Below are positions 106 through 25,165 of a DNA stretch of 40,571 bases, piece after piece. Under the pieces are notes generated by a model. That model made no database searches. It was given only the letters and a program-made list of their open reading frames with translations, and was not told the origin of the DNA. The DNA lies in contig JAUWGF010000001.1 in the NCBI GenBank assembly GCA_030606515.1, positions 1 to 40,571 of the forward strand, written 5' to 3'. A program made the position numbers and the translations under genes. The number at the start of each line of letters is the position of its first letter. Position 1 is the stretch's first letter. This stretch comes from Deltaproteobacteria bacterium (GTDB taxonomy: Bacteria; Desulfobacterota; Dissulfuribacteria; Dissulfuribacterales; UBA3076).

Positions 106-107
106 CA

Positions 108-4117: not shown

Positions 4118-4160
4118 AATCTCCTTCTCCCCATGTTTATTCTCAGAACAAGGCAGGCTC

Positions 4161-4188
4161 AACCTACCATCTGATGTAAAGGTGTCAA
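4161..4188 (-). promoter_or_regulatory. Candidate sigma-70 promoter for purD-purE
   Basis: On the minus strand, TTGACA (4188..4183), then 16 nt, then TAGGTT (4166..4161), about 45 nt upstream of ATG 4117. This position argues against the longer ORF start. Confidence 0.3.
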
Positions 4189-4258
4189 CGCCTGTTCTGA
4201 TGATCCGATGCCTGATTTTCGAGACAGTCACAATCTACGTGGTATAATGCCTGGGTAA

Positions 4259-4497: not shown

Positions 4498-4524
4498 AAG
4501 TGAAAGGGAAAAGGGAAAAGGGAA

Positions 4525-5271: not shown

Positions 5272-5385
5272 GCAGACATGCATTTTGGTAATCATACTGA
5301 CTCTCCCGGGCCAAAGGGCCTGGAAAAAAATAATAAGGATGCCTATTTGTAGGCGTTCACAGGTTCATATTTCACCGTTAAGGCA

Positions 5386-5677: not shown

Positions 5678-5693
5678 ATTGTTCCCCTTTGAC

Positions 5694-7298
5694 CTAATTG
5701 TTTCCTAATTGCAGATTAATAATAAACTTTGTGCCTTTATTTACCTCGCTCTCTACTTCAATAGATCCCTTATGTCTATCTATAATTAAATGTGCCAAGC
5801 TGAGACCAAGACCCGTCCCCTTTTCTGCGTCCTTTGTAGTGAAAAAAGGCTCAAATATTTTCAGTAACAAATCTTCAGGAATGCCCTCGCCGCTATCCTC
5901 AATTTCAACCACAGCCATCTTATCACCTATCTTAAAGTAATCATCCCCTCTCCTGCCTACTTTATTGTTTAACTTCGATGCTAACTTACAAAAGACATTT
6001 ACTTTAATCTCGCCTCTCTCTTGTATGGTATCGACAGCATTGTTCAATAGATTAACAACTACCTGCTGAAGCATGTTCTTGTCAGCTTTACATTTTACTG
6101 GTTCTTTTGGATAATTTCGGTTTATTTTTATTTTTTTCAAATTCTCACTACGCTCAACCAAGCTTATTGTGTTATCTAATAATTCACAAATATCTACAGA
6201 TTCAAATTTAAGTTCGGCCTTTCTTGAAAATTGTAGAATATCAACAATAATTTTGTTTGCCCTACCTACAGCCTGTTTTATGATTTTAATAGATCCTGCA
6301 CATTGTTCATCTTTCTCTGACAAAGTATTATCAAGATACTCTACACCCATCAAAATAATACCCAGGGGATTTCTAATTTGATGAGCAACTCCAGATGTCA
6401 AACGCCCTATAGCTGCCATTTTTTCATTCTGTATTAACTGATCATGGGTTTCCTTAAGTTCATTATATGCCTTTTTTAAATCCTGTTCTGCTTTCTTAGG
6501 CCCAGTAATATTTTTTGATATTACTGAAACAGCTATTACATTCTTAGTATCAGGTTCTTTAATTGGACCAAGCGTTTTCATAAACCATTTGTCATATTTT
6601 TTGCTGTAAGATTCATAGTCTGTGGTTGTACCAGTTTCAAAAACTCTATTTACATTCTTGGCAAAATTTTTCGTTTCTTCTGTTGCATGAAATGCGTCAA
6701 ATGTCTTGCCCAAAACTTGGCTCCTTAATAGGCCAAATTGAGACAACAACATATCGTTTACAAAAAGATATTTACACTCTTTATCTACTATGTAGATTAA
6801 ATCACTTGTAGATTCCACGAGAGAACGATATTTTTCCTCGGATTTTCGCACTTTCATTTCTTCTTTAACTTTTCCCTCGCTGATAAGTGCGATAACATAA
6901 GCTAATAATATGAAAACTCCCGCCCTCTCAATGGTTCCTACTATAAGAGTTCCAAGAGCAGAATATGCTAAATATATATGAAAACAACCTAAAAAAACTG
7001 CCAGCGGGATGACTTTTTTTCTATACCATATAGCTGTCAGTATAATTGGGATATAGAATATGTTGGTATATAGAATCTGTAAGCTGAAATAATTAAGGAG
7101 GGTATTAAACTCTTGAGCTGTGTAAACATCAGCATAATCAATTTTTGCTCTCGTAACAAAATTAAAGTAATAACCTCCTATAATACATAAAAATATTGTA
7201 AAAAGCAATATAATACTCCGACTCCCTCTGGATTTTGTAAATCCTTCCATCATGAATATTTTGGGTAAACGAAGTCCCTGCCGAGCACTTAAATTCAT
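5694..7298 (-). CDS. Membrane sensor histidine kinase (multi-TM N-terminus, PAS, HisKA, HATPase_c)
   Basis: H-box SGVAHQIRNPL, N-box VVNLLNNAVD, G-boxes EDSGEGIP and GTGLGLS. A PAS-like segment (YRSLVESTSDLIYIVDKECKYLFVN) and 5-6 hydrophobic helices sit at the N-terminus. The start may be the internal MM at codons 16-17. Confidence 0.85.
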   Translation of the reverse strand: MNLSARQGLRLPKIFMMEGFTKSRGSRSIILLFTIFLCIIGGYYFNFVTRAKIDYADVYTAQEFNTLLNYFSLQILYTNIFYIPIILTAIWYRKKVIPLAVFLGCFHIYLAYSALGTLIVGTIERAGVFILLAYVIALISEGKVKEEMKVRKSEEKYRSLVESTSDLIYIVDKECKYLFVNDMLLSQFGLLRSQVLGKTFDAFHATEETKNFAKNVNRVFETGTTTDYESYSKKYDKWFMKTLGPIKEPDTKNVIAVSVISKNITGPKKAEQDLKKAYNELKETHDQLIQNEKMAAIGRLTSGVAHQIRNPLGIILMGVEYLDNTLSEKDEQCAGSIKIIKQAVGRANKIIVDILQFSRKAELKFESVDICELLDNTISLVERSENLKKIKINRNYPKEPVKCKADKNMLQQVVVNLLNNAVDTIQERGEIKVNVFCKLASKLNNKVGRRGDDYFKIGDKMAVVEIEDSGEGIPEDLLLKIFEPFFTTKDAEKGTGLGLSLAHLIIDRHKGSIEVESEVNKGTKFIINLQLGNN

Positions 7299-7423
7299 TA
7301 TATTTGTGTTCCTCTTGTGGATTGGTTTATTATGAATGCTGCAAAGTTGCCGGGATGAATGTCAATCCCACAATTCATTTTCCTCATTCATTCCGCGATA
7401 CTCAATCGAAGAACCTCTTTTTC

Positions 7424-7450
7424 TTATCGAAAAATTTTATGGAATAGTTA
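7424..7450 (-). promoter_or_regulatory. Weak sigma-28-like promoter candidate upstream of the kinase
   Basis: Minus strand TAAC (7450..7447), N15, TTCGATAA (7431..7424), about 125 nt upstream of the kinase start. It has two mismatches to the GCCGATAA consensus. Confidence 0.2.
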
Positions 7451-7606
7451 AGAAATAAGAACACCTGAGGAGAATATTTTTAATTAACTTAAGCTGCGGT
7501 TTCGGGGTGGTTTTGGTATAATTTCTGGGTCTTGGGAATGAAACCCGAAAAAAGGCGACCGATTCAAAGGCAGATGTCGTGTAGAAATGGAATTTCAATA
7601 ATGGAA

Positions 7607-8332: not shown

Positions 8333-8342
8333 TGTCTTAACC

Positions 8343-9353: not shown

Positions 9354-9426
9354 CTATAAAAAACCCCCTTTCCTAATCTTGAATAAAGAAATAACATAGA
9401 AAATAATAAAGGGCTATGCTCACGTA

Positions 9427-12114: not shown

Positions 12115-12167
12115 AAAGACAACATGAAACCGCATATGAACACAAAAGAGCGCGGATTTCTAAAACC

Positions 12168-13955
12168 ATGAGCCTGTTATTATCTGAGCGTAACTGCGTC
12201 TGGCTACGGTTTTTTCTATCCCTGTTTATCATTGTTTTCCTGTCAGGGACATTCTTGCTAATTGCCCTGGACTCTGCCCACGCAAAGCCCAGCAGAGCTG
12301 AATACACCTATCGTCAGGCCAAATCCGAATACGATCGCCTTGCCAGGAATTCCCGGCTCCGCACTCACAGAACAGCATGGGTCCGGGTAATTAAGAAGTT
12401 CAGAAAAGTCTACCTCACTTATCCCAATGACAAGAAGGTTGCCCCAAAGGCCCTCTTTATGATGGCCCGTTGCTACAGTGAATTATATGGATATTCAGGA
12501 GCCGGGAAGGACATCAGGGAGGCCATTGAGCGATATCAGGTCCTGGTAGAGAGATTCCCTAAAAGCCGCCTGGCAGATGACGCCCTCTACGCCCTTGGCG
12601 AGCTTTACAAGCGTACTGGAAATACCGGAAAGGCCCGAGAGGCCTGGGAAAAGATAGTTAAGGAATACCCTAAAAGAGACAAGGCCAGGATTGCCGGAAA
12701 CAAGCTGAAAACCTTAGGTCCTAAGCAACGGCAGAAAACAAAATCTTTAAAGCAGACAACACATTATGAGAAGGAAAAAGGGTCCGCCGGCCTCTCCAGC
12801 CCGAGGATTGCTCCAGGTGCAAAACCTGCCACTGTGCAGGAGGTGAGGCACTGGTCTGCTTCAGACTACACCAGGGTAGTAATTGACACGGCAGGCCCTG
12901 TATCCTTTAAGAAAGGATATCTTCCTGCCAATAAGGCCAAGCATCTTCCGGAACGTGTTTATTTAGACCTTAAGCCGGCCCGTATAGGGAAAAAACTCAA
13001 AGACAACATCTCTATACAGGACGGGCTACTCAAAGGAGTGAGAGTAGCCCAGTTCAACCGTAGTACAGTCCGGGTGGTACTTGACCTCAGGAAGACCCAT
13101 AAGACCAAAATCTTTTATCTTGAGGATCCCTTCAGGGTGGTGGTGGACGCCTTTGGAGAAAACTACTTCCAGAGGCCTTCCTGTCCTCCCCAGTCCTCAA
13201 AAATATATAAAAAGACCAGGGGCCAATTAAAAGGTAATGGTCTTTCTCTCGCGCAACAGTTAGGCCTCTGTGTAAAACGAGTGGTGATAGATGCAGGCCA
13301 TGGCGGAAAGGATCCGGGGGCTATCGGGCCTACCGGCCTAAGGGAAAAAGACGTTGTGCTCAAGATTTCGAAAAAAGTGGCTTCACGACTTGAAAAAGAC
13401 CTTGGCTGCCAGGTTATCCTGACCAGAAAGAAAGATCGGTTTCTGCCACTTACACAAAGGACTGCCATTGCCAACGCCAAAAAGGCCGATCTCTTTGTAT
13501 CTATTCATGCAAATGCAGCTCCCAACAAGAGAGCCAGGGGAGTTGAGACCTACTTTTTAAACTTTGCCCTGGATAAAGAGGCCATGAGGGTGGCAGCCAG
13601 AGAAAATGCTACATCTACTAAAAGCATAGGGGACCTCAAGAACATCCTCAACGACATAATGAAAAATGCCAAGGTCGATGAGTCCTCACGCCTGGCAGGT
13701 TATGTACAGAGGGAAGTTGTAAAGAACCTCAGAAAAAAATATCGAAATGTAAAAAGCAAAGGAGTCAAACAGGCCCCATTCTTTGTCCTGATAGGTGCAA
13801 GGATGCCTTCTGTTCTTGTTGAAGTATCGTTTATCAGTAACAGGAAAGAGGAAGAGCGCCTCAAAAGTGACCGCTATCTGGACCGCGTGGCCGAGGGAAT
13901 CGTAAACGGTATAAAATCATATATCAGTGGCACCAAATTGGCCTATCTTCCTTGA
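12168..13955 (+). CDS. N-acetylmuramoyl-L-alanine amidase with an N-terminal CpoB/YbgF-like TPR module and an AMIN domain
   Basis: TM or signal segment, then YbgF-like TPR (ALFMMARCYSEL..RYQVLVERFPKSRLADDALYALGELY..AWEKIVKEYPKRDKA). The AMIN region follows (VRHWSASDYTRVVIDTAG...VRVVLDL), then Amidase_3 (VVIDAGHGGKDPGAIG, SIHANA, ETYFL). Confidence 0.85.
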   Translation: MSLLLSERNCVWLRFFLSLFIIVFLSGTFLLIALDSAHAKPSRAEYTYRQAKSEYDRLARNSRLRTHRTAWVRVIKKFRKVYLTYPNDKKVAPKALFMMARCYSELYGYSGAGKDIREAIERYQVLVERFPKSRLADDALYALGELYKRTGNTGKAREAWEKIVKEYPKRDKARIAGNKLKTLGPKQRQKTKSLKQTTHYEKEKGSAGLSSPRIAPGAKPATVQEVRHWSASDYTRVVIDTAGPVSFKKGYLPANKAKHLPERVYLDLKPARIGKKLKDNISIQDGLLKGVRVAQFNRSTVRVVLDLRKTHKTKIFYLEDPFRVVVDAFGENYFQRPSCPPQSSKIYKKTRGQLKGNGLSLAQQLGLCVKRVVIDAGHGGKDPGAIGPTGLREKDVVLKISKKVASRLEKDLGCQVILTRKKDRFLPLTQRTAIANAKKADLFVSIHANAAPNKRARGVETYFLNFALDKEAMRVAARENATSTKSIGDLKNILNDIMKNAKVDESSRLAGYVQREVVKNLRKKYRNVKSKGVKQAPFFVLIGARMPSVLVEVSFISNRKEEERLKSDRYLDRVAEGIVNGIKSYISGTKLAYLP

Positions 13956-13966
13956 ACCTAAGTTGA

Positions 13967-14231
13967 GCGATTAGCTGTTAGCCATTAGCGTTTAGCTTTT
14001 GAATAAAACTGTTGGCATCCTTCATAGCAATCCAAAAGTAGTTTACGTTTTTGGGGGTAATATACCTCGAAAAATATGACCTGTGCGATTAGCTACTGAC
14101 CGTTAACTTTTAGCTTAATAACCCGTTTTTATACAAAGTTTTTACCTATACCTAACGGCTAACGGCTAACGGCTAACGGCTGGCATCCGTCTATGTTGAA
14201 AAAGTGTAAACTACAAAATGAAGGATGCCAA
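13967..14231. repeat. Second palindromic heptamer-armed element (TAACGGC-type arms plus an inner inverted repeat)
   Basis: The left arm reads GCGATTA GCTGTTA GCCATTA GCGTTTA (13967-13994). It faces four perfect TAACGGC units at 14153-14180, which are the inverted complement of GCCGTTA. The inner inverted repeat is ttggcatccttcat (14012-14025) / atgaaggatgccaa (14218-14231), plus gtagtttac (14038-14046) / gtaaactac (14206-14214). A direct copy of the left arm lies at 14085-14114. Confidence 0.6.
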
Positions 14232-14348
14232 TAAAACAGGTTGAATTTTGTTTCTCCTCTGCTAAAGTGGAGCACAATCTGTGGATTCCAAGTGTAATTC
14301 AATTGTAGTTGCATGGTGCGACAAAAAACCATTTTGCGGGAGGCGTCT

Positions 14349-14945
14349 ATGTATTGGGGAAATATGGGAGTAAAAATTTGTTTGCTGGCACTGATCTCGA
14401 TATTGAGCCTGGGACTTCTTGCCGGGTGCGGCAAAAAACCAGTAAGAGGCGGAGAAGAAGTACTTGTCACTGAGCAGATCGGGGAATCGGCCATAGGGCC
14501 TGAAGGAATGCCCGGTATTGCTGAAGTTGGTATGGGTGAGACGGAAATCCCAGGCGAAGCTATGGGCACTGCTGCCGGCTTTGGAGAGACTATTTCTGAG
14601 GGCAGAACCAGCGCCCCCATGCATCCCATATACTTTGACTTTGACCGTTTCAACATCCGGGACGACATGAAACCCGTAATGGAAGAGAATGCTCTGTTCC
14701 TGCTTGATCATCCGGAGGTCATGATCGAAATCCAGGGTAACTGTGATGACCGCGGTACCAATGAGTATAACCTGGCTCTTGGGGAAAGAAGGGCAAAAGG
14801 CGCCCAGGCATATCTTGTCAATCTGGGTGTAAACCCGGATCGTATAGGAACTGTGAGCTTTGGTGAGGAACGCCCTCTGGATCCAGAGCAAAACGAGGAC
14901 GCATGGGCAAAAAATCGTAGAGATGACTTAGTTGTCATAAAGTAG
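14349..14945 (+). CDS. pal: Peptidoglycan-associated lipoprotein Pal (OmpA-like domain)
   Basis: Lipobox LLAGC after a hydrophobic leader. The C-terminal OmpA_C domain reads IYFDFDRFNIR...NCDDRGTNEYNLALGERRA...VSFGEERP. SD gggagg lies 6 nt before ATG 14349, so the track start at 14313 is rejected. Confidence 0.85.
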   Translation: MYWGNMGVKICLLALISILSLGLLAGCGKKPVRGGEEVLVTEQIGESAIGPEGMPGIAEVGMGETEIPGEAMGTAAGFGETISEGRTSAPMHPIYFDFDRFNIRDDMKPVMEENALFLLDHPEVMIEIQGNCDDRGTNEYNLALGERRAKGAQAYLVNLGVNPDRIGTVSFGEERPLDPEQNEDAWAKNRRDDLVVIK

Positions 14946-14976
14946 TCTAAAAGGTTTTGATTATCCCAGGAAACTT

Positions 14977-15015
14977 TGACCACGCGTTGCATAGCAACGC
15001 CGTGGTCATTATTTT
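14977..15015 (+). terminator. Intrinsic terminator after pal
   Basis: Stem tgaccacgcgttgc (14977-14990), loop ata, stem gcaacgccgtggtca (14994-15008, one bulged C), followed by ttatttt. Confidence 0.6.
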
Positions 15016-15125
15016 GCAAAAGTGCCTTTTGAAAAAATCCTTAATCTTGTTCAATGGCAAAGCGTACAGAGCCATATGACAGAAGATGGGAGTTATGAAA
15101 AGGCTCGGGAGGTATTGATTGCCTT

Positions 15126-15689
15126 ATGAAAGGTCGCCTAAGCTTAATACCTGTGCTGCTGATTTTTCTGTGGACCGCGGTCCTGTGCTGTAGTGTAACT
15201 GCTGGAGAAGCCGCACAGGTAAAGATAGCTGTCATCAATATGCAAAAAGTGGTACGAAAATCCGTAGCCGGCCAAAAGGCTATGGAGAAGCTCAATAATA
15301 AATTTGAAAGCCTTCAGAAACAACTCAGGGCTAAACAAGATGAGTTGAAGGCCTTTAAGGAAGACCTTGAAAAAAAGGGCCCTTTGATGAATGAGGATGC
15401 CAAGGCAGAAAAAGAACGCGAATATAAGAAGGCCCTTCGGGATTTTAAAGATCAAAGCGACGATGCCCAGTTTGAAATGCGCCAGGCAGAATCCAAAAGT
15501 ATGGAGCCGGTACTCAAGGAACTTGAAAAGGTTGTGACCCGTATTGGTGAGGAAGGTGGATATACACTCATTCTGGAAAAAAACATACCTGGTATATATT
15601 TTAATGCCTCTAATGTCGATATCACGGACGAGGTCATAAAAGCCTACGATAACGAGGTAAAATCCAAGAACAAAAAGGATAAGAAATAG
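15126..15689 (+). CDS. skp: Periplasmic chaperone Skp/OmpH family
   Basis: Signal peptide, then KIAVINMQKV..., a long K/E-rich coiled region, and the C-terminal GGYTLILEKN...DITDEVIKAYD typical of OmpH. Confidence 0.8.
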   Translation: MKGRLSLIPVLLIFLWTAVLCCSVTAGEAAQVKIAVINMQKVVRKSVAGQKAMEKLNNKFESLQKQLRAKQDELKAFKEDLEKKGPLMNEDAKAEKEREYKKALRDFKDQSDDAQFEMRQAESKSMEPVLKELEKVVTRIGEEGGYTLILEKNIPGIYFNASNVDITDEVIKAYDNEVKSKNKKDKK

Positions 15690-15690
15690 A

Positions 15691-15718
15691 CCCTGAACCT
15701 TGAACCCTGAACCTTGAA
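15691..15718. repeat. Perfect tandem duplication of a 14-mer (two CCCTGAA/CCTTGAA heptamer pairs)
   Basis: ccctgaaccttgaa at 15691-15704 is repeated exactly at 15705-15718, between the skp stop and the tkt start. It is the same unit class as 1-40. Confidence 0.8.
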
Positions 15719-15725
15719 TTGGCCT

Positions 15726-17681
15726 ATGTTTCACATAGATATAGAAAAACAAAACGAACTTACACAGGAACAGATCTCTGAGCTACAGACCATGTGGAAC
15801 AGATGTGCCGCGCGCATTATCCTTTCCACTACCCTTGCAAAAAGCGGTCATCCAGGTGGCTCTCTTTCTTCCCTGCACACCCTGCTTGTCCTTTACAGCA
15901 TAATCAAACATCGTCCGGCAGAACCCCGCTGGCCGGACCGTGACCGCGTAGTCGTGAGCATCGGGCATATCTCTCCATGTGTATACAGCGTACTCGCTGA
16001 ATTTGGTTATTTCTCAGAGGAAGATTTCCTTACCGAGTTTCGTCGTGCCGGTTCACCCTGTGCAGGCCATGTAGAACAAACCATGCCGGGAATTGAGTGG
16101 AATACTGGAAATCTAGGCCAGGGACTTTCAGTAGGTACAGGCATATGTCTTGCCCAAAATCTCCTTGGCCGGCCGGGCAAAACAATCGTCCTCATGGGCG
16201 ACGGAGAACAGCAGAAGGGACAGGTAGCTGAAGCCAGACGATTTGCAACAAAATTCGGGCAAGGAAACCTGATCGGTGTAGTCGACAGGAATCACCTCCA
16301 GATTGGAGGTTCCACTGAAGATATCATGCCGGTCCATGTAAGGGATGAATATGTTGCCGCAGGCTGGAATGTATTGTATGTACCGGACGGCCATGATTTT
16401 CAGACCATATTCCAGGCCCTGAAAAGGGCATGGGTACATGACGGCCTTACGCCCAGCCGCCCCACGGTTATGGTCATGCGTACTGTCATGGGAAAAGGCA
16501 TCTCTTTTATGGAAGACAAGGCAAAGTATCATGGGTCTCCGCTGCCAAAAGATGATGCCGAGACGGCTTTGAGAGAACTGGGACAAGATAAGGACCTACT
16601 TGAGCTGTGGTCAAAAAACAGGGCTGAACACAAAATAAAGGGACCATGCAAAATACCAGAGGCAGACTTCCCATCTATTGACGCTGGAGAACCCATTGTC
16701 TACGGCATTGAGACCAAAACAGACTGCCGCTCTGCATACGGCTTAGCATTAAAGGATCTGGCTCAAAGGAACAATGTTCAGGATTCCACCCCAAAGATCG
16801 TAGGATTTAGCTGTGACCTGGAAGGATCAGTAAAGATGCAGGGGCTTCACCATGTTTCCCCCACTGCCTTCATAGAGACAGGCATACAAGAGCACCACGC
16901 AGCTACCTGCGCCGGAGCAGTGAGCAGAGAGGGATTGGCCACCTTCTTCAGCACCTTTGGGGTCTTTGCCGCAGCAGAGACTTACAACCAGCACCGTTTA
17001 AATGATCTCAATGAAACCCACCTTAAAATTGTGTCTACTCACGTAGGACTGGACGTGGGAGAAGATGGCCCGACCCATCAAAGCATCGACTATGTAGGAC
17101 TTTTCAACAACCTCTTTGGCTTCTCTATATTCATGCCGGCAGATCCAAATCAAACTGACAGGATAGTCCGTTATGTGGCCACCAATCCGGGCAATGTCTT
17201 TGTGGGTATGGGAAGGTCCAAGTTGTCAATTATTACCACAGAGGATGGAAAACCGTTGTTCGATGCAGACTATGTGTTTCGGCCCGGGCAGGCAGACTGG
17301 TTGAGACAGGGGGATAGGGCCACTTTTCTCACCTATGGTTCAGCCACATCCCATGTTCTCGAAGCATGGTCAATTCTTGACTCGGAGGGCCTATCAACAG
17401 GGGTGCTCAACATGGCCTCACTCAAGCCTATAGACAGAGAATCAATACTTGAGGCGGCCAAGAAAGGGCCCCTCGTAACGGTTGAAGACCATGTGGCCCG
17501 CACAGGTCTGGGGACCATGGTGGCGCAGGAACTTATAGCGGCAGGCGCACACCAGCAGCTCCTCACTCTTGGAGTGACTCATTATGGTTCTTCAGGCAAG
17601 CCGGATGATCTGTATCGCGTTCAGGGCCTTGATGCCGAAAGCCTTGCCAGAAAGGTGGAAGAGTTCCTGATGTTGTCTTAA
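15726..17681 (+). CDS. tkt: Transketolase (single-chain)
   Basis: LAKSGHPGGSLS, GNLGQGLSVG, MGDGEQQKGQ (ThDP motif), and pyrimidine-binding and C-terminal domains (GIQEHHA, HVGLDVGEDGPTHQ). ATG 15726 is preferred to TTG 15714. No clear SD. Confidence 0.85.
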   Translation: MFHIDIEKQNELTQEQISELQTMWNRCAARIILSTTLAKSGHPGGSLSSLHTLLVLYSIIKHRPAEPRWPDRDRVVVSIGHISPCVYSVLAEFGYFSEEDFLTEFRRAGSPCAGHVEQTMPGIEWNTGNLGQGLSVGTGICLAQNLLGRPGKTIVLMGDGEQQKGQVAEARRFATKFGQGNLIGVVDRNHLQIGGSTEDIMPVHVRDEYVAAGWNVLYVPDGHDFQTIFQALKRAWVHDGLTPSRPTVMVMRTVMGKGISFMEDKAKYHGSPLPKDDAETALRELGQDKDLLELWSKNRAEHKIKGPCKIPEADFPSIDAGEPIVYGIETKTDCRSAYGLALKDLAQRNNVQDSTPKIVGFSCDLEGSVKMQGLHHVSPTAFIETGIQEHHAATCAGAVSREGLATFFSTFGVFAAAETYNQHRLNDLNETHLKIVSTHVGLDVGEDGPTHQSIDYVGLFNNLFGFSIFMPADPNQTDRIVRYVATNPGNVFVGMGRSKLSIITTEDGKPLFDADYVFRPGQADWLRQGDRATFLTYGSATSHVLEAWSILDSEGLSTGVLNMASLKPIDRESILEAAKKGPLVTVEDHVARTGLGTMVAQELIAAGAHQQLLTLGVTHYGSSGKPDDLYRVQGLDAESLARKVEEFLMLS

Positions 17682-17701: not shown

Positions 17702-18742
17702 CTAAATGATCAGGTTTGGAATTTCCATTTCCCCATTTTGGAAAGCTCTGATGAAAGCATCGACGACTTTGGGATCAAAATCCTTTCCCGAACCTTTAAC
17801 GATGATTTCCTTGGCTTTAAATGGAGATACTGCCTTGCGGTAAGGACGATCGCTTACCAGGGCATCATATACATCTGCCACGGAGAGGACTTTAGCCTCT
17901 ATAGGGATCTTTTCCCCTTTGATCGGATGATAGCCTGATCCATCATACTTGTCGTGGTGAGCCAAAATGATAGGAATAATGTTGCCCAGGGGAGCTTCTA
18001 CTAAATCCAGAATATCAGCACCCAGTTCCACATGGTTTTTCATTGTTTCACGCTCTTTCTCGGTCAATTGCGCTGCCTTGTAAAGAATTTCCCGGCCGAT
18101 ATCGATTTTTCCAATGTCATGGAGCAAGGCAGCGGCACGAACCGTTTCAATTTGTTGAGGAGCGAGTCCGAGGTAGGTAGCGATCTTAGCTGAATAGATC
18201 GAAACGCGGTAACAATGGTTTTCGGTATACTTATCTTTGGAAATGAAATGGCGCAGAATCACCAGAAGACCCCGGTAGGTCTTTTGGAGTTCACGCATCT
18301 GTAGTGCCTGACGCTCATAGAGAGTACCCATTGAATATGCAATAATCACTAACATACTGGCCCAAGCCATGATTTCATACCATTGGCCGCTCACTGAATT
18401 GAATTGTTCCATCTCGTTGAACAGATCTGAGTTGAAGTGTAAAACAAGACCTACTAGTAAGATGCTGGCCACTGCAGTCAGAACGGCATGGCGACGTCCG
18501 AAAAAATAGGCGGAAAAAATGGTAGGAATGACGTATAGCTGCAGCAACATCTGTTGGGCGGTCAACAGATAATTCATGATGCCAATGATAGAAAACATGG
18601 ACAAGATCATCCACAGCTCTTTGTTCGCTTCCATAATCTGGCGCAACAATTTTGTCTTCCATCGCCGAAATTTGTCTGAAGTTAAACCGGGCGGTATAGT
18701 GTCGAGAATCAATTCTTCTCTGCTTTTAGCTTGCTCAGTCAT
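17702..18742 (-). CDS. Membrane-anchored HD-GYP-type phosphohydrolase (probable c-di-GMP phosphodiesterase), variant GYHP motif
   Basis: About 5 TM helices, then the HD domain (AALLHDIGKI) and HHDKYDGSGYHP in place of HHExxDGxGYP. ATG 18742 has SD agggggg. The alternative upstream ATG is at 18772. Confidence 0.8.
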   Translation of the reverse strand: MTEQAKSREELILDTIPPGLTSDKFRRWKTKLLRQIMEANKELWMILSMFSIIGIMNYLLTAQQMLLQLYVIPTIFSAYFFGRRHAVLTAVASILLVGLVLHFNSDLFNEMEQFNSVSGQWYEIMAWASMLVIIAYSMGTLYERQALQMRELQKTYRGLLVILRHFISKDKYTENHCYRVSIYSAKIATYLGLAPQQIETVRAAALLHDIGKIDIGREILYKAAQLTEKERETMKNHVELGADILDLVEAPLGNIIPIILAHHDKYDGSGYHPIKGEKIPIEAKVLSVADVYDALVSDRPYRKAVSPFKAKEIIVKGSGKDFDPKVVDAFIRAFQNGEMEIPNLII

Positions 18743-18817
18743 TTTAACCCCCCTGCCATTAACTTCGAGCATCCAATAAAAAAAATCCCATGAGACATTC
18801 TTTTTGACCTTAATTTG

Positions 18818-18844
18818 TTATCGACCATTAAGTTCAATTTCTTA
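18818..18844 (-). promoter_or_regulatory. Sigma-28 (FliA)-like promoter for the HD-GYP gene
   Basis: Minus strand TAAG (18844..18841), N15, GTCGATAA (18825..18818). The consensus I recall is TAAA-N15-GCCGATAA. Confidence 0.5.
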
Positions 18845-18849
18845 AAAAT

Positions 18850-18882
18850 GGAAGGTGGATACACGCTCATTCTGGAAAAAAC
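18850..18882 (+). pseudogene. 33-nt relic of an skp paralogue
   Basis: ggaaggtggatacacgctcattctggaaaaaac compared with skp 15551-15584 ggaaggtggatatacactcattctggaaaaaaac. Both substitutions are synonymous in the skp frame (tat->tac, aca->acg). Similarity ends abruptly on both sides. Confidence 0.55.
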
Positions 18883-18963
18883 GCGGAGTGCACTTGGATG
18901 TGTGAGCACTTTTAACAACGAGCAACGCAGCCATCGGACCAAAGACAGAATTCTGCATAAGCC

Positions 18964-19764
18964 TCAGGATTTTCCTGGTTCGGTCATCTTATCATCACCA
19001 ACAAGCTCGGGAAGCAGATCTACCAGTCTCAACCAGATCTGTTTCAATGGTCCCGGATCAAAACTATTGCTGCCGTAGCTTGTTGAAAGGGCCTCGACCA
19101 GTCTCTCTTCCCACTCGTCAAGAGCTGCCGCCACCTCACCGTAATCCATGTATTTTGCAGAGGCCCTTAGCCTTTTTATTGCATCCTGACTGGCAGACAA
19201 CCATTCCTCCTCGGGCCAGTCAGGCACATTGGCCAGAGGTTCGGATACCTCTTTTGAGAACAAAGGAGTAATTGCTCCATCCCTAGCCTTTATCGCATTC
19301 CGGGCCTGTCGATCCGGTAATCCCGAATCATGGCCGGGAGTTGCTTCGCGTGCGTCAGAATCGACTTTCTCCGACCGTGAATCAAAGAGTATGGCGTTCT
19401 GATCTTCAACATTGTCTAATGCACTGCTTGATTCCGCATTCTTCTCTGCTACTTCTTGCACCAGCTTCTGTAATCGATCCAGCCTTGAAAAAATCAGGTT
19501 AATAACATCTTCTGTAAAAACCAGACTACCCTTACGGGCCTTATCAAACAGATTTTCCATACTATGGGCAAGTGTGGCTATTTGTTCAAGGCCCACATGG
19601 TCCGCTGCACCTTTTATACTTTGCATATTACGAAAACATTCATCCAGAAAAGAAGAGTTGTGAGACTCCTGTCCTAATAGCAACAGGTTTAATTCCATCT
19701 CCTGGAGGTTTCCCTCGACTTCAACAACAAAATTTTGCAAAATTTCCTGATCAAACTGATTCAT
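18964..19764 (-). CDS. CheA-P1-like Hpt domain protein with Gln in place of the phospho-accepting His
   Basis: Residues 40-80 read LDECFRNMQSIKGAADHVGLEQIATLAHSMENLFDKARKG. This parallels CheA P1 FRAAHSIKGG...HLMENLLDEARRG (recalled). Codon 48 is CAA (19623..19621). The C-terminal roughly 150 aa are acidic and unrecognised. SD aggggat. Confidence 0.75.
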   Translation of the reverse strand: MNQFDQEILQNFVVEVEGNLQEMELNLLLLGQESHNSSFLDECFRNMQSIKGAADHVGLEQIATLAHSMENLFDKARKGSLVFTEDVINLIFSRLDRLQKLVQEVAEKNAESSSALDNVEDQNAILFDSRSEKVDSDAREATPGHDSGLPDRQARNAIKARDGAITPLFSKEVSEPLANVPDWPEEEWLSASQDAIKRLRASAKYMDYGEVAAALDEWEERLVEALSTSYGSNSFDPGPLKQIWLRLVDLLPELVGDDKMTEPGKS

Positions 19765-19817
19765 AGTATCCCCTGGCTCTCCCTGGAATCCAACACTTCA
19801 ATCTGGCTATAAGTTGT

Positions 19818-19844
19818 TTATCGACCGCTGAGTTTAATGTCTTG
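19818..19844 (-). promoter_or_regulatory. Sigma-28-like promoter for the Hpt-like gene
   Basis: Minus strand CAAG (19844..19841), N15, GTCGATAA (19825..19818), 54 nt upstream of the ATG at 19764. Confidence 0.5.
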
Positions 19845-19890
19845 ATGCAATTTCTGCGATCAGAAAAAACATGCCCGCCACAGAAATCTT

Positions 19891-19917
19891 TAACATATGA
19901 AATGATTTGGTCGATAA
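19891..19917 (+). promoter_or_regulatory. Sigma-28-like promoter for the mglB-mglA operon
   Basis: Plus strand TAAC (19891-19894), N15, GTCGATAA (19910-19917), 91 nt upstream of the mglB TTG at 20008. Confidence 0.5.
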
Positions 19918-20007
19918 AGGCTTTAGAGTATTTAATACGGGAGTCTCATTTGAGTGTTTATGCGTCTTTGATACAGAATGGCCTTTTCTTTTTGGGGAGT
20001 TTAAGCC

Positions 20008-20406
20008 TTGGCTGATTTAGTGCTGACCGCCTCAGTCCTGGAAGAAACCAGAATACAGATAGAAAACACCCTTATTAAGGCAGGCGTTAATAATGTGCTC
20101 CTGGTTGATGAAGCGGGCAATATAGTAGTTGCTTGCGGGCACAAAATCTACAACATGGACACTACATCTCTTGCTGCGCTGGCAGCAGCTAACTTTGGCG
20201 CCAGTTCACAGATTGCAAAGTTGATAGGAGAGGACGACTTTGCACTCCTGTTTCACAAAGGGAAAAAAGACAGCATACACGTTGCACGAATAGGCACTGA
20301 TTTGATCCTGGTAACAATTTTCGGAGACAATGTTTCACTGGGCTTGATCAGGCTGAGAGTAGCACAATTGGCAAAAACTATAGAAAAGACATTTGGCCAA
20401 AAATAA
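20008..20406 (+). CDS. mglB: MglB, a Roadblock/LC7-fold GTPase-activating protein
   Basis: NVLLVDEAGNIV, DTTSLAALAAANFGASSQIAKLIGEDDF, FHKGKKDS, SLGLIRLR all closely parallel Myxococcus MglB as I recall it. TTG start with SD ggggag 8 nt upstream. Confidence 0.85.
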   Translation: MADLVLTASVLEETRIQIENTLIKAGVNNVLLVDEAGNIVVACGHKIYNMDTTSLAALAAANFGASSQIAKLIGEDDFALLFHKGKKDSIHVARIGTDLILVTIFGDNVSLGLIRLRVAQLAKTIEKTFGQK

Positions 20407-20413
20407 TTAAAAT

Positions 20414-21031
20414 ATGGCGCTAATAAATCTCAGCAAAAGGGAAATATGCTGCAAGATAGTCTACTACGGTCCCGGACGATGCGGGAAGACTACGAATTTG
20501 CTCTATATATATAATGCCATGAATAATAAAGCCCGTGGCAAAATGTTGACCATTGAGACAAAAGGAGACAGAACGCTTTTTTTTGACCTCCTTCCTTTAA
20601 ATCTGGGGAAAATAAATGGCTTTAGTATAAAAATCCAGCTTTACACCGTACCTGGTCAGACAATTTATGAAGCAACCAGGAGACTGGTTCTTAGGGGTGT
20701 GGATGGTCTGGTCTTTGTTGCTGACTATCTTAAGGTACGTCATGAAAAAAACATAGGAAGCCTCCAAGATCTGCACCGCAATCTCCTTGAGCACAATCTA
20801 ACTCTGGAAGAAATCCCGATTATTCTTCAATTTAACAAATGTGACTTAGTGCCGACACCCATACCCACGCTGACTAAAGAAGAGCTTGAAACAGAGCTAA
20901 ACAGAGAACTTAAGACAAAAATTTTTGAAGCAGCAGCTACTAAAGGCACAGGGGTCTTTGAAACCCTGAAAGAAATAAGCAAAAGGACCGTTCACTATGT
21001 GGCAACAAAGCATCTTTTAACAAATCACTGA
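20414..21031 (+). CDS. mglA: MglA, a Ras-like polarity/motility GTPase
   Basis: KIVYYGPGRCGKTTNLLYIY (P-loop), GDRTLFFD (intrinsic Arg), YTVPGQ (catalytic Gln), FNKCDL, ATKGTGVFETL. It starts 7 nt downstream of mglB. Confidence 0.9.
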   Translation: MALINLSKREICCKIVYYGPGRCGKTTNLLYIYNAMNNKARGKMLTIETKGDRTLFFDLLPLNLGKINGFSIKIQLYTVPGQTIYEATRRLVLRGVDGLVFVADYLKVRHEKNIGSLQDLHRNLLEHNLTLEEIPIILQFNKCDLVPTPIPTLTKEELETELNRELKTKIFEAAATKGTGVFETLKEISKRTVHYVATKHLLTNH

Positions 21032-21084: not shown

Positions 21085-22611
21085 ATGGATCAGACACAAA
21101 AAATCCCTGATCCCAAGAACTTCACTGAAAACCTAGAAAGTACTATTGACGAACTATTTAGTGCATCACGACAGATAGAAATCGACCCCTTAACTAATGA
21201 AGTGAAGGATTTGTCGCAAGACAAAACAGATCAAGGAACGTCCTTTCAGGTTGTAGACCAGGGAGAAAAGCATCCGGAAGAAATCCAGATCTCAGATACC
21301 ATAGAGATGGAAGCTCCTGCTCAACAAATAGATATTACCACTGACGAAAAGATATTGGAATTAGATTCAGGGCCGGAGCTGGAGCCTGAAGAGAAAGAGA
21401 CTGAGGCTGTCAATCTGGAACAACAGTTCAGCCAACTCAATCAGCTGTTGTTGACCCTGGAGTGGGAGGTCACTCAACCACACGTAGTATCAGCCAAAAA
21501 CCTGATAGAGACAATCCGGAAAAATCCAAAGATAGAGGCAGACAAAAATCTCCACGAACTGTTCAATCTTATAATAAGGATCCTTGAAGGGATGGCGGAC
21601 AATCCTGAAAAAGTGCCCACTTCCGGGCCCGAAGCCCTGCAGAAAGGCCTTGACAGTTTAAAAAACCTTGTTTGGAACGAGGAACAGGACCCAAAGGCTA
21701 AAGAGGAACTCTTGAGATCCGCCAAGAAAGAGCTTGAATCAGCCATAGACATGGCAGTGCCTGAGGTTGCCCACGAAGTGTCCGAGGAGGCGGTTTCAGA
21801 ACGCCTTGTTGAGGATGTTAATGATCTTGAACCAGTGCTTGAAGATGCAGTCAAATTCCATATCAAAGTCCTTGATGACTGTATAGGTTATATTTTACCA
21901 GTTGAAAAGCTCCTTGCCCGGACTCCGGGGATGGAAAAGCTACATCATTTTCAGCAAAATGTTAAAAGCAGGCTTGAAAAACAAAAGAAAATATTGGAAA
22001 AGGCCTTAACCGGCGATTACGAGCCATCAGTTGATGTGCGTGATTATGCTGCTCAACAAACCGAAGACATCACCATAGAAATTGATAAAAAAGAAGAAAC
22101 ACCCTCAGTGACCATATCCTGCCCGTGGTATGAACTTGTAATTGCCCAATGGGACCAGAAGCAAGTGGCATTTGTCCCTGAAGATGTAGCATTTGCCGGG
22201 ACTGCTCCCTGGCGGGCCAAGAAAGGCATTAATAAGCTGGAAACCTTTAAATTAAAGAAGCTCAAGACCTGGCCATGGACAAAGCTTCAGCCATTGATGC
22301 AAGGGGAATTGTCGAATCAGGAAGAATCACAGCTTATAAAACTCGAGTTTCCGGTATTGCAAAAATCGATTTCATCTTTCAGCTACTCTCAGCCCCCAGA
22401 CAATCCGACTGTATCAGTCTTATGCCGTGGGGATAAAGGACTGGTCCTCATGCTGGACACCCCTTTAGAGACCATTTCTGTAACACCTGAGTGTTCATGG
22501 GAACCGTCCGCAGAAAGTAATGGACCATGGGTCGGCAACCTGAAGATAGAAAACAAACAAATATCCGTGGCAACGCTGGAAAGTCTCTTAAATACACTGA
22601 CAAATGAATAA
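21085..22611 (+). CDS. Orphan acidic protein (508 aa), function unknown; possible degenerate CheW-like C-terminal domain
   Basis: Strong SD aaggaga. The first roughly 120 aa are rich in E, D and Q. A helical middle follows (LLLTLEWEVTQPHVVSAKNLIETI...). The beta-rich C-terminus (YELVIAQWDQKQVAFVPEDVAF ... VSVLCRGDKGLVLMLDTPLETISV ... VGNLKIENKQISVATLESLL) is loosely CheW-like. Its stop overlaps the next start. Confidence 0.6.
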   Translation: MDQTQKIPDPKNFTENLESTIDELFSASRQIEIDPLTNEVKDLSQDKTDQGTSFQVVDQGEKHPEEIQISDTIEMEAPAQQIDITTDEKILELDSGPELEPEEKETEAVNLEQQFSQLNQLLLTLEWEVTQPHVVSAKNLIETIRKNPKIEADKNLHELFNLIIRILEGMADNPEKVPTSGPEALQKGLDSLKNLVWNEEQDPKAKEELLRSAKKELESAIDMAVPEVAHEVSEEAVSERLVEDVNDLEPVLEDAVKFHIKVLDDCIGYILPVEKLLARTPGMEKLHHFQQNVKSRLEKQKKILEKALTGDYEPSVDVRDYAAQQTEDITIEIDKKEETPSVTISCPWYELVIAQWDQKQVAFVPEDVAFAGTAPWRAKKGINKLETFKLKKLKTWPWTKLQPLMQGELSNQEESQLIKLEFPVLQKSISSFSYSQPPDNPTVSVLCRGDKGLVLMLDTPLETISVTPECSWEPSAESNGPWVGNLKIENKQISVATLESLLNTLTNE

Positions 22612-24967
22612 TCTCGATTCAACTTCGGACAATTTAATTAAAACCAGGTTGGCAGAAGTCGATCTTTACTGTAGTCAAGGTCTTAATAAAGAAGCTCGTC
22701 TTATTTGTTTAGAGCTTCTGAAACTGACAGGTGATAAGTCCCATCCCCTCTATACTGAAGTAGAGTCCCGTCTGAAAGGACTTCAGTTTAATGGCATAGA
22801 AACAGTCCCGTCAGGAAAAACGGATTTCACCACCAGCCCTGAAGATCTTAAACCTGAAGACCTTAAAGAATATCAGGACAATCAATTCAACAGTTGTATA
22901 GGTCTGATAGAAGCGGGCTTTCATTCAGAGGCCATAGAGGAGCTTAAAGCCTTACTTGTAGCAGGATACAGGCCGGGAATAATTCGAGCGAAAATCGGAG
23001 AATCATACCTGCGGCTGGATACGCCCTTTGAGGCCCTTGAGTATTTACAGGAGGCGATTGAGGACACGCAACTATCCAAGGATGAACGTCTGGATGTACT
23101 ATATCAACTGGTACTTACCCATGAACGAACAGGCGCGGTGCCCAAGGCCATTGAGGCTCTGGAACAAATCATCCGCCTTGATCCCGCCTTTAGAAACGCC
23201 AAACAGAGGCTTGAGGAACTTTCCCAAACAGCGCAGAAATATGGCCGGTTCTATTATCTGATTCGTAATCAGTTCCTCTCTGAAGAACAACTCAAAAGGA
23301 CCAAAGAACTGGCCAAACAGGGAAAAAAATCCATAGAAAGTATCCTGCTAAACCAGGTTGGCATAGACAAGACAGAGCTTGGCCGCTCCCTCAGCGAATA
23401 CTATCGATGCCCCTTTGTGGAATTTGACGAACTGGAAGTAGGAACCACACCATCTTGCGTGCGCGGTATCAAAGAACATTTTTTCAGGACCAATTCCTGT
23501 GCCCCGATTCGCGAAAAATTAGGGACCCTTATAGTTGCACTGGACAACCCCCATGACTTAGCAAAGATAGACAATATAAGAAGGGTCCTTAAGGCCAAAG
23601 GCTTTCAATTTGCAGTTTCCCTAAAGGAAGATATCAACAGATTCATAGACTATTTCTATGGGAAATATTCCACAGGAGGATCTGATGATGACGTGTTTGA
23701 GCAATTGGAAGTTGTTGATGAGGATACGGAACTCGAGGAAGAGGATAATGGCTTAGCATCAGATGCTGATAGCGTAGTAGTACAGATAGCCAATAAAACC
23801 ATAGAGGATGCCTATCATCGCAGGGCCTCTGATATTCACATTGAATCCCTGGCAGGCAAACGGGGGGCCCTGGTCCGCTTCAGGATCGATGGCGACTGTA
23901 TGCGTTATCAGACCGTTCCGTATAACTACAAGCGGGCCATGATTTCCAGAATCAAGATCATGTCCAACCTTGACATTGCCGAGAAACGCCTGCCTCAAGA
24001 CGGAAAAATAAAGTTCAGGACTCGCTCTGGTAAAACCCTGGAATTACGTGTAGCCACACTTCCCACAACTGAAGGCAACGAAGATATCGTACTCAGGCTA
24101 CTGGGCTCTTCCGAGGCCATGCCGATTGATCGCATAGGGCTCCTTGATCAAAACCTGGAGCAGCTAAAACAGCTTTTGCAATTGCCTTATGGGCTTATAT
24201 TGGCAGTTGGTCCTACCGGATCAGGAAAGACAACTACCCTGCATGCTGCACTTGGCTATATAAATCGGCCTGAGAAAAAAATCTGGACAGCGGAAGATCC
24301 TGTAGAAATCATGCAGGATGGATTGCGCCAGGTGCAGGTGAAACCCGGTATCGGCCTGACTTTTGCCCGGATTCTCAGGGCCTTTTTAAGGGCAGATCCG
24401 GATGTGATAATGATCGGCGAAACTCGAGACGAAGAAACTGCCACAACCGCAATAGAAGCATCCCTGACAGGTCACCTGGTCTTTTCAACCCTCCATACCA
24501 ATTCCGCCCCTGAGACAGTTACAAGGCTTTTAGGAATGGGAATGGACCCATTCAACTTTGCTGACGCCCTCTTGGGGGTCTTGGCACAGAGGCTTGTAAA
24601 AAGACTTTGTCCCAAGTGCCGCGAGGCCTATCAGCCTGATGACCACGAGAAAAAACATATTTTACACGAGTACGGGCATCATCCAACTCAACCCTTAGAG
24701 TTATCAGACCTAAATGAAATAACACTTTATCGGCCAAAGGGCTGCCAACATTGCAACAGGACCGGCTTCAGAGGCAGGCTTGCAATCCACGAACTACTGG
24801 TGTCAGATGACGGTCTCAAAAAGCTCATTCAGGAAAAACGCCCCGTGGGAGAGATACGGGAACATGCCATGAAGCATGGAATGTCGATCCTGAAACAGGA
24901 CGGCATACAAAAGGTCTTAAGGGGAGATACAGATCTGAAACAGATTAGGGCAGCCTGCATAAGGTAA
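22604..24967 (+). CDS. TPR::T2SSE_N::PilB/GspE-family secretion ATPase fusion
   Basis: Residues 1 to about 205 are TPR-like (e.g. GFHSEAIEELKALL, AIEALEQIIRLDPAFRNAKQRLEEL). Residues about 215-350 are a GspE-N-type domain (LGRSLSEYYRCPFVEFD). The ATPase core has Walker A GPTGSGKTTT, TAEDPVE, Walker B DPDVIMIGETRD, His box TGHLVFSTLHTN, and the tetra-Cys motif CPKC...CQHC. Confidence 0.85.
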   Translation: MNNLDSTSDNLIKTRLAEVDLYCSQGLNKEARLICLELLKLTGDKSHPLYTEVESRLKGLQFNGIETVPSGKTDFTTSPEDLKPEDLKEYQDNQFNSCIGLIEAGFHSEAIEELKALLVAGYRPGIIRAKIGESYLRLDTPFEALEYLQEAIEDTQLSKDERLDVLYQLVLTHERTGAVPKAIEALEQIIRLDPAFRNAKQRLEELSQTAQKYGRFYYLIRNQFLSEEQLKRTKELAKQGKKSIESILLNQVGIDKTELGRSLSEYYRCPFVEFDELEVGTTPSCVRGIKEHFFRTNSCAPIREKLGTLIVALDNPHDLAKIDNIRRVLKAKGFQFAVSLKEDINRFIDYFYGKYSTGGSDDDVFEQLEVVDEDTELEEEDNGLASDADSVVVQIANKTIEDAYHRRASDIHIESLAGKRGALVRFRIDGDCMRYQTVPYNYKRAMISRIKIMSNLDIAEKRLPQDGKIKFRTRSGKTLELRVATLPTTEGNEDIVLRLLGSSEAMPIDRIGLLDQNLEQLKQLLQLPYGLILAVGPTGSGKTTTLHAALGYINRPEKKIWTAEDPVEIMQDGLRQVQVKPGIGLTFARILRAFLRADPDVIMIGETRDEETATTAIEASLTGHLVFSTLHTNSAPETVTRLLGMGMDPFNFADALLGVLAQRLVKRLCPKCREAYQPDDHEKKHILHEYGHHPTQPLELSDLNEITLYRPKGCQHCNRTGFRGRLAIHELLVSDDGLKKLIQEKRPVGEIREHAMKHGMSILKQDGIQKVLRGDTDLKQIRAACIR

Positions 24968-25165
24968 GGTAAGGTAAGGTAAACGTTCACAGGTTACGTT
25001 TATGCAGTACGGAATTGTTTTAAAAGATGAACGTCGAATATCGAACATCGAACGTCCAACGTCGAATAAAAAACGAATATCCAATACCGAACATTCAACG
25101 GCTATTTCTGTTTCTTCATCTTTTCCCATTCAACATTCGATGTTGGATGTTCGATGTTCATTAAA
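24963..25165 (-). repeat. Palindromic heptamer-armed cassette, copy C (empty: the arms are joined and the ORF deleted), preceded by (GGTAA)x4
   Basis: (GGTAA)x4 spans 24963-24982. gtaaacgttcacaggttac (24979-24997) is the exact reverse complement of 1637-1655. 25027-25100 is the reverse complement of copy A's right arm region (about 1554-1628). 25103-25165 is the reverse complement of copy B's left arm. The internal ORF is reduced to MKKQK*. Confidence 0.75.

Follow-up and report, generated by a model that had tools for sequence, protein, structure and literature searches.

Class 3 promoters of the alternative sigma factor sigma-28 (FliA in Escherichia coli and Salmonella, SigD in Bacillus) have the form TAAAGTTT-N11-GCCGATAA. 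FliA, SigD and WhiG promoters share a recognizable signature: the core is CGATAA, and a TAA box precedes it at a distance of 15 nucleotides (nt). Chemotaxis-type genes are classical sigma-28 targets, and E. coli pdeH (yhjH) encodes a sigma-28-driven cyclic di-GMP (c-di-GMP) phosphodiesterase. Chlamydia, which is non-flagellated, has a sigma-28 (RpsD) that controls late developmental genes; this factor is not known to be linked to MglA or a pilus. In Myxococcus xanthus, the Frz chemosensory system acts on the MglA/MglB pair, and a stand-alone TPR protein (SgmX) joins MglA to PilB in Myxococcus. Here we analyze a 40,571-nt stretch of DNA (the window) from a Deltaproteobacteria bacterium (UBA3076; GenBank assembly GCA_030606515.1, contig JAUWGF010000001.1). 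It contains three sites that are, judged by their sequence, probably promoters of the sigma-28/FliA family and would link an HD-GYP-type gene, a gene for a histidine-less Hpt-like protein (pseudo-Hpt) and mglBA into one regulon.

The window derives from the Seep-SRB2 clade, a group of uncultured methane-seep sulfate reducers that are the bacterial partners of anaerobic methanotrophic (ANME) archaea. This assignment follows from the distribution of the Hpt-like protein, homologues of which were confined to metagenome-assembled genomes (MAGs) labelled as or related to Seep-SRB2 (E20SeepSRB2, FWG174_SeepSRB2, UBA3076 and others) and to seep metagenomes.

Like the promoters of E. coli/Salmonella FliA and Bacillus SigD, the sites are bipartite (TAAN-N15-octamer), equally spaced and built around a CGATAA core in the -10 element. 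As among enterobacterial FliA targets, the genes behind them include chemotaxis-type genes and a putative c-di-GMP phosphodiesterase gene. Unlike E. coli FliA sites, they carry the -10 element GTCGATAA, with T for C, and the -35 elements TAAG, CAAG or TAAC with no GTTT extension. The target set also departs from that of FliA and SigD: in place of flagellin, mot or canonical che genes, a putative cognate sigma factor would here serve MglAB, a CheA remnant and a PilB-like ATPase. Should Seep-SRB2 have lost flagella while retaining a sigma factor of the FliA type, the sigma-28 of Chlamydia would be the closest analogy.

The attack-phase FliA regulon of Bdellovibrio bacteriovorus resembles the Seep-SRB2 locus in its -35 TAAG and its spacing; its consensus, derived from mapped transcription start sites, is TTAAG-N16-CCGATA (PMC3627812). 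That regulon has expanded to Tad pili, chemotaxis and surface proteins (PMC3627812, PMC5430801), and FliA drives many non-flagellar genes there, including those for Tad pili (PMC5430801). Bdellovibrio also has MglA, as does the Seep-SRB2 locus. In contrast, Bdellovibrio is flagellated and its FliA has experimental support, whereas the Seep-SRB2 regulon is deduced from sequence alone. FliA control of a c-di-GMP phosphodiesterase is described for Pseudomonas putida bifA (PMC5300878).

Three sites of the same build face three transcription units

Genes were called using Pfam, NCBIfam and comparison with PDB structures. The features under study are as follows.

5694..7298, minus strand: PAS-HisKA-HATPase histidine kinase (Pfam), candidate fourth regulon member with a weak predicted promoter site 5' of it
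7424..7450, minus strand: weaker sigma-28-type site TAAC-N15-TTCGATAA, 126 nt 5' of the ATG of the PAS histidine kinase
17702..18772, minus strand: membrane HD-GYP-type (HD_5) putative c-di-GMP phosphodiesterase (Pfam HD_5 2.4e-30, HD 5.9e-24), alternative start at 18742
18818..18844, minus strand: P(HD-GYP), predicted sigma-28-type promoter, -35 TAAG, 15-nt spacer, -10 GTCGATAA, predicted start near 18811
18964..19764, minus strand: pseudo-Hpt (Pfam Hpt 2.1e-13), matching CheA P1 structures, with a second helical region
19818..19844, minus strand: P(pseudo-Hpt), predicted sigma-28-type promoter, -35 CAAG, 15-nt spacer, -10 GTCGATAA, predicted start near 19811
19891..19917, plus strand: P(mglB), predicted sigma-28-type promoter, -35 TAAC, 15-nt spacer, -10 GTCGATAA, predicted start near 19924
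20008..20406, plus strand: mglB, Roadblock/LC7 GTPase-activating protein (Pfam Robl_LC7 9.5e-15)
20414..21031, plus strand: mglA, Ras-like polarity GTPase (Pfam Ras/Arf), 71-83% identical to relatives
21085..22611, plus strand: orf508 (508 residues), conserved partner gene; product with a CheW-like fold at the C terminus and helical bundles
22604..24967, plus strand: TPR-MshEN-T2SSE ATPase, PilB-like (Pfam T2SSE 5.7e-121, MshEN 3.4e-13, weak TPR)

The octamer GTCGATAA was present in exactly three copies in the window (18818-18825 and 19818-19825 on the minus strand, 19910-19917 on the plus strand). Each copy was preceded by G and had a TAAG, CAAG or TAAC tetramer 15 nt upstream, so that pattern counts upheld what the first-pass annotation of this DNA had reported. 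In shuffled versions of the window the bare octamer averaged 0.71 copies and reached at least three copies in 4 of 100 shuffles. The pattern YAAS-N15-GTCGATAA matched the window at 18818-18844 (minus), 19818-19844 (minus) and 19891-19917 (plus), with no match in 100 shuffles. The three copies of the composite YAAS-N15-GGTCGATAA all lie inside 1.1 kb, are intergenic and face their own gene.

P(HD-GYP) lies 46 or 76 nt from the two possible ATG codons of its gene (18772 and 18742), P(pseudo-Hpt) 54 nt from the ATG at 19764 and P(mglB) 91 nt from the TTG at 20008. These are the distances given earlier, and the TTG is backed by an ATG at the same position in orthologues. Over all sites, which are without exception oriented toward the gene, the -10 core stands 28-119 nt from the start codon. 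The two minus-strand copies are identical at 21 of the 27 positions of the core, and at 27 of 45 positions when the frame is widened, so that the common block of about 32 nt proposed for them was roughly right. The weaker site upstream of the histidine kinase was likewise found where the first-pass annotation had placed it; it is conserved in locus L005 as CAAC-N15-TTCGATAA (19551-19577), with an altered spacer.

At all three sites the -10 element GTCGATAA agrees with GCCGATAA at 7 of 8 positions. Compared with TAAA(GTTT), the -35 tetramers agree at two or three of four positions and the GTTT extension is absent; they do fit the -35 TTAAG of the Bdellovibrio FliA consensus. What makes the sites significant is that they have one pattern in common, lie between genes, point the right way and are conserved; resemblance to the E. 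coli consensus is not the evidence on its own. A scan of the three intergenic regions for sigma-70-like promoters returned no site, and an Rfam scan of the 5' leaders and intergenic regions returned no riboswitch or other RNA element.

A further match, CAAT-N15-GCCGATAA at 24727-24753 (minus), has a perfect sigma-28 -10 element and runs antisense within the 3'-terminal part of the PilB-like gene. All loci spanning this match keep it, but the segment is conserved coding sequence. We did not count it as a promoter: coding constraint probably produced the match by coincidence, and an antisense promoter is less probable.

The sites are conserved within the Seep-SRB2 clade

Each Seep-SRB2-clade locus that covers the three sites has all of them at the orthologous places, and the gap between TAA box and -10 element was exactly 15 nt throughout. 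For the mglB and Hpt promoters, 5 of 24 columns varied in the -35/-10 boxes compared with 20 of 30 in the spacers. P(HD-GYP) was kept in L001, L003, L005, L021 and L023, with 0 of 8 positions of its -10 element variable; both this promoter copy and the HD-GYP gene were seen in Seep-SRB2-clade loci only. P(pseudo-Hpt) carries GCCGATAA, the exact sigma-28 -10 element, in L003 and L014. The -10 variants across the orthologous sites were GCCGATAA, TCCGATAA, ACCGATAA and GTCGATAT.

In four strains, elements of about 245-300 nt resembling miniature inverted-repeat transposable elements (MITEs) lie immediately 3' of the pseudo-Hpt -10 box; one of these strains has an Hpt protein 98% identical to that of the window. 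The elements, with terminal inverted repeats GTAACCGTTCAC...GTGAACGGTTAC, are at the following positions.

L017:9700-9960: MITE-like element
L003:9690-9990: MITE-like element
L013:3715-3960: MITE-like element
L014:5450-5730: MITE-like element

A similar repeat end, GTAAACGTTCACAGGTTAC, is present at 24980-24998 of the window.

Old divergent pairing of the predicted pseudo-Hpt and mglB promoters

Distant relatives were reached via homologues of orf508. They comprised L024 (the cultured Dissulfurimicrobium hydrothermale), L025/L026 (ML8_D), L027, L028/L031, L029, L030, L034 and L035, with ML8_D and L035 sharing the synteny of the window. D. hydrothermale is annotated with the anti-sigma-28 factor FlgM, and it has a polar flagellum (PMC8780430). 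In L024, L027, L028, L029 and L034, an mglB-mglA-orf508-PilB-like operon is divergent from a complete che-like operon in the order HDOD/HD, three CheB-like response regulators (one with PatA_N), CheY and CheA; in L027, CheY was not called as a separate gene.

The motif was present on both sides of the divergent region in all five of these lineages, with spacers of 14-16 nt and unrelated spacer sequences. On the mglB side it was found in L024, L025, L027, L028, L029, L034 and L035, as TAAT, TAAA or CAAT followed by (G/T)(T/C)CGATAA (TAAA in L028). On the che side it reads TAAG or CAAG followed by GTCGATA(A/T), GACGATAA or ACCGATAA. An unbiased k-mer test gave the same core: CGATA was the sole 5-mer common to all six 200-nt regions upstream of mglB, and on the che side no k-mer was shared except CGATA and the divergent site read as its reverse complement. 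A third site of this type precedes cheW-mcp in L027 and L028; the L028 copy, CTAAAGTTT-N11-TCCGATAA, is close to the E. coli consensus and has the -35 element TAAAGTTT. ML8_D and L035 retain the mglB site though their che genes are wholly absent. These comparisons show that the predicted pseudo-Hpt and mglB promoters are an old divergent pair, in which the pseudo-Hpt site corresponds to the ancestral che-operon promoter.

A second conserved block, (A/G)GGC(A/T)TTAGAG, lies directly 3' of the mglB -10 element (window 19918-19935, plus strand). It recurs at orthologous positions in L025, L027, L028, L029, L034 and L035, around or just past the predicted start, and could serve either as a site for a regulator or as an element of the leader.

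As Frz does in Myxococcus, the five relatives with the divergent arrangement couple a CheA/CheY/CheB-type pathway, here physically, to mglBA and a type IV pilus-type ATPase. They differ from Frz in having HDOD, three CheB-like regulators, PatA_N, the CheW-fold orf508 and sigma-28-type promoters. The Seep-SRB2 locus is unlike Frz in another way: it is without kinase core, CheY, methyl-accepting chemotaxis protein (MCP) and CheW, and therefore encodes no Frz-like phosphorelay. The gammaproteobacterial loci L007-L012 entered the comparison through a weak Hpt match; the CheA of L009 lies in a non-flagellar che cluster without fliA.

Pseudo-Hpt is a CheA remnant in a stepwise reduced locus

Pseudo-Hpt aligned to the N-terminal ~370 residues of the CheA proteins of the relatives, with domains P3-P5 gone. 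In blastp comparisons with the CheA neighboring mglBA in the relatives, identity was 33-41% over residues 1-173 and 48-53% over residues 169-254. The position of the phosphorylated histidine is taken by glutamine in the motif FRNMQSIKG, so that the H-x-x-K-G pattern is missing, and this Gln48 is invariant in five orthologues; the CheA proteins of the relatives retain the histidine (CFRxxHSIKG). The ratio of nonsynonymous to synonymous divergence (dN/dS) of pseudo-Hpt, 0.18-0.49, indicates a fragment under purifying selection. At the level of sequence, these data show pseudo-Hpt to be the remnant of a decayed CheA that has kept the P1 fold and lost the phospho-histidine. The first-pass annotation, which had correctly read a histidine-less Hpt, overlooked that the protein is a decayed CheA and that the locus is a reduced che-mgl-pilB supercluster.

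One Seep-SRB2 lineage, L005 (FWG174), has a REC-CheB methylesterase gene (L005:8857-9957, plus strand) between the sigma-28-type promoter and pseudo-Hpt. This gene is the orthologue of the CheB2 gene of the relatives (47-53% identity) and survives in L005 only among the lineages examined. In the window, 19765-19817 forms a clean junction between CCAGGGAGAGC and CAGGGGATACT where the CheB2 gene is missing. MCP and CheW genes are located 3' of the PilB-like gene in L027 and L028 and are absent from that position in Seep-SRB2, ML8_D and L035. The corresponding intergenic region of the window (24968-25101) contains (TAAGG)x4 together with recurring GAACGTCGAA/ATCGAAC units.

The cheA end of the che-mgl supercluster adjoins an operon flgI-flgJ-flgN-flgK-flgL-csrA-fliW in L028/L031. 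A relative, L032, has at 1148-16729 OmpA-OmpH-transketolase followed by flgF-G-A-H-I-J-N-K-L-csrA-fliW, and its transketolase is 62% identical to that of the window. In the window, OmpA-OmpH-transketolase is followed by HD-GYP, pseudo-Hpt and mglBA, and the flg operon is absent at the junction, which suggests that a flagellar cluster was lost at this point. The Seep-SRB2 locus can thus be shown to be a reduced che-mgl-pilB supercluster that has kept both of its predicted promoters.

Further hints suggest that Seep-SRB2 lost flagella. Homologue searches with FliW and FlgI gave no match traceable by accession to annotated Seep-SRB2 MAGs among the best 120 of each, most of them nameless; this is a weak negative, and the FlgI matches listed include more distant taxa such as Thermodesulfatator. 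The accessible portions of the Seep-SRB2 literature (PMC5947290; PMC10553843 with supplements) make no mention of bacterial flagella or FliA in the clade.

The sites are probably recognized by a sigma factor of the FliA family

We propose that the three sites and the weaker site of the PAS kinase are promoters for RNA polymerase carrying a group-3 sigma factor of the FliA/sigma-28 family. The elements would be a -35 yTAAg and a -10 G(T/C)CGATAA set 15 nt apart, with transcription expected to start about 7 nt past the -10 element, near 18811 and 19811 on the minus strand and 19924 on the plus strand. One alternative sigma factor would then co-express MglAB, the PilB-like motor ATPase, the putative c-di-GMP phosphodiesterase and the CheA remnant, and the PAS kinase would probably belong to the same set. 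The comparisons show that the chemosensory part decayed in Seep-SRB2 and that both predicted promoters were kept; a further copy stands before the HD-GYP gene. The motif precedes the che-like operons of L024, L027, L028, L029 and L034 and cheW-mcp of L027 and L028, in keeping with the classical sigma-28 targets, and relatives that are flagellated and bear FlgM fit as well. It equals the start-site-mapped FliA consensus of Bdellovibrio, and the genes behind the sites are under purifying selection and so need a promoter. A living sigma factor is favored because the boxes are conserved in the clade, because the HD-GYP and PAS kinase genes have extra copies and because no alternative promoter was found. 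The sites would add new cases to a known class of promoters, with targets that are unusual for it.

The first-pass annotation had placed the module under one alternative sigma factor, most simply the flagellar sigma-28. The sigma-28-type linkage of the three units is well supported by the divergent pair and its presence in five lineages; a flagellar FliA in this organism is not established. For the relatives with flagella, "flagellar-class control" is valid in an evolutionary sense; for Seep-SRB2 itself it is unproven.

Several observations weigh against this interpretation. Matches to the E. coli pattern TAAA-N15-GCCGATAA with at most two mismatches numbered 6 in the window compared with 3.3 expected, which is not significant; the -35 boxes depart from TAAA, and the -10 element carries T in place of the consensus C. 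Synonymous divergence (dS) within Seep-SRB2 is modest (0.13-0.65), and the within-clade footprint is therefore weak alone and suggestive only. L030, the most distant relative with mglB-orf508, is without the motif. Upstream of the flgI-fliW operon of a relative (L031:2394-2660, plus strand) there is a sigma-54-like TGGCCT-N5-TTGC and no sigma-28-type site; polar flagellates usually have sigma-54 sites at their early and middle flagellar genes, so this operon neither supports nor refutes a sigma-28 assignment. Finally, the hints of flagellar loss (the silence of the literature, the FliW and FlgI lists and the lack of flg genes at the transketolase junction) prompt the question whether FliA survives in Seep-SRB2.

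This last point is the core of the strongest alternative, in which the sites are fossils: fliA was lost with the flagella, the motifs are relics and the genes now use other, unrecognized promoters. The decayed che operon fits such a history, as do the flagellar operon and MCP-CheW genes that are present at the locus in relatives and absent here, the lack of any flagellar match traced to Seep-SRB2 MAGs among the matches listed, and a dS low enough for motifs to linger for a while in the absence of selection. Relics would not, however, be expected to vary less in the boxes (5/24) than in the spacers (20/30). Nor would they account for a motif before the HD-GYP gene, which occurs in Seep-SRB2-clade loci only, and before the PAS kinase, where the spacer is altered in L005, or for the mglB site that ML8_D and L035 retain after complete loss of che. 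The scan found no sigma-70-like alternative. We consider fossil sites unlikely.

A second alternative takes GTCGATAA as the operator of a DNA-binding regulator and the upstream TAA as incidental. The divergent copies do form an inverted repeat on the plus strand, TTATCGACC...GGTCGATAA, and the TTAGAG block a few nt 3' of the mglB site in most lineages is a place where a further factor may bind. The arms are ~90 nt apart, however, which is too distant for one dimeric operator. An operator would also leave unexplained the bipartite build, with 14-16 nt to a yAA box in all ~20 independent sites, the orientation toward the gene without exception and the exact fit to experimentally mapped FliA promoters. 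This makes an operator quite improbable.

It is very unlikely that the sites are plain sigma-70 promoters with an accidental likeness to sigma-28 sites. The mglB site can be read as TTAACA-N17-GATAAA, with 5/6 and 4/6 agreement, but the final T, a critical base, is missing from this would-be -10 element, which the scan did not call; the Hpt and HD-GYP sites fit poorly, and the bases conserved across lineages are CGATA, not TAnnnT. Chance recurrence of the octamer in AT-rich intergenic DNA, to which the bare octamer counts in shuffles (4/100 with at least three copies) and the unenriched consensus matches might point, is refuted by conservation at orthologous positions in at least 20 loci and eight lineages and runs counter to the 0/100 shuffles containing the composite.

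Returning to a FliA-family sigma factor, we offer a wider scenario for Seep-SRB2 in ANME consortia only tentatively: flagella and the chemosensory kinase core may have been lost and a FliA-family sigma factor kept for MglAB, a PilB-type pilus ATPase, the phosphodiesterase and a repurposed CheA fragment.

Possible implications for pilus-based partner contact

If this scenario is true, a flagellar sigma factor would have been recycled as a master switch for pilus-based behavior in a syntrophic partner, comparable to the sigma-28 of Chlamydia. Type IV pili have been proposed to help Seep-SRB2 connect with its archaeal partner (PMC5947290), and a single sigma factor that switches on the MglAB/PilB-like module would be a concrete, testable regulator of such contact. 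The che-mglBA-PilB supercluster with sigma-28-type promoters occurs in several Dissulfuribacterales-related lineages. In flagellated bacteria it ties the MglA polarity switch to the late-flagellar/chemotaxis regulatory tier, and in a consortium-dwelling lineage it decayed in steps. With the promoter motif as a probe, the regulon can be delimited in genomes and metatranscriptomes of Seep-SRB2.

Gene products of the locus and other features of the window

The calls of an HD-GYP-type protein, a histidine-less Hpt, MglB and MglA in the first-pass annotation were borne out by Pfam, NCBIfam, structure comparison and motifs. Annotation of the window with Pfam and NCBIfam revealed no flagellar, chemotaxis or sigma factor gene. 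The HD-GYP-type protein has an N-terminal multi-pass membrane region with a weak MASE1-like match. It contains the motifs HDIGK and HHDKYDGSGYHP, that is, GYH then P compared with the canonical GYP (HHExxDGxGYP). Searches with blastp found no homologue of this protein in the che operons of L024, L027 and L028, and descent of its gene from the HDOD gene of the relatives was rejected, the blastp similarity being nil.

MglB matched the NCBIfam MglB model at 7.2e-15, under the curated cut-off of the model, and is 64-78% identical to the MglB of relatives. MglA has the hallmarks YTVPGQ (Thr for Asp in G3, TxxGQ) and DRTLFFD (intrinsic Arg), and the two proteins make up a polarity module consisting of a Ras-like GTPase with these hallmarks and a Roadblock/LC7 partner.

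The product of orf508 had no Pfam or NCBIfam match. It has 80 homologues, and wherever the context was read the gene lies between mglA and a PilB-like gene. In its AlphaFold2 model (predicted local distance difference test score 70), the C-terminal domain matched CheW/CheA-P5 in Foldseek (E 1e-4, target TM score 0.60-0.64), and the helical bundles bear a weak resemblance to CheA P1.

The PilB-like ATPase is encoded by the last gene of the mglB operon, the start of which overlaps the orf508 stop by 8 nt. It matched the NCBIfam PilB model at 1.5e-150, under the cut-off of the model, and a simple regular-expression search for the MshEN motif that binds c-di-GMP gave no match in it. In this protein an N-terminal TPR region is fused to MshEN and T2SSE.

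Two features lie elsewhere in the window. PurD (GARS N/A/C domains) and PurE (aminoimidazole ribonucleotide carboxylase) are fused in one open reading frame at 2312-4231 (minus strand). A cobalamin riboswitch (Rfam RF00174, 120 bits) is located at 95-280 (plus strand), 5' of a CbiK cobalt chelatase gene (420-1307).

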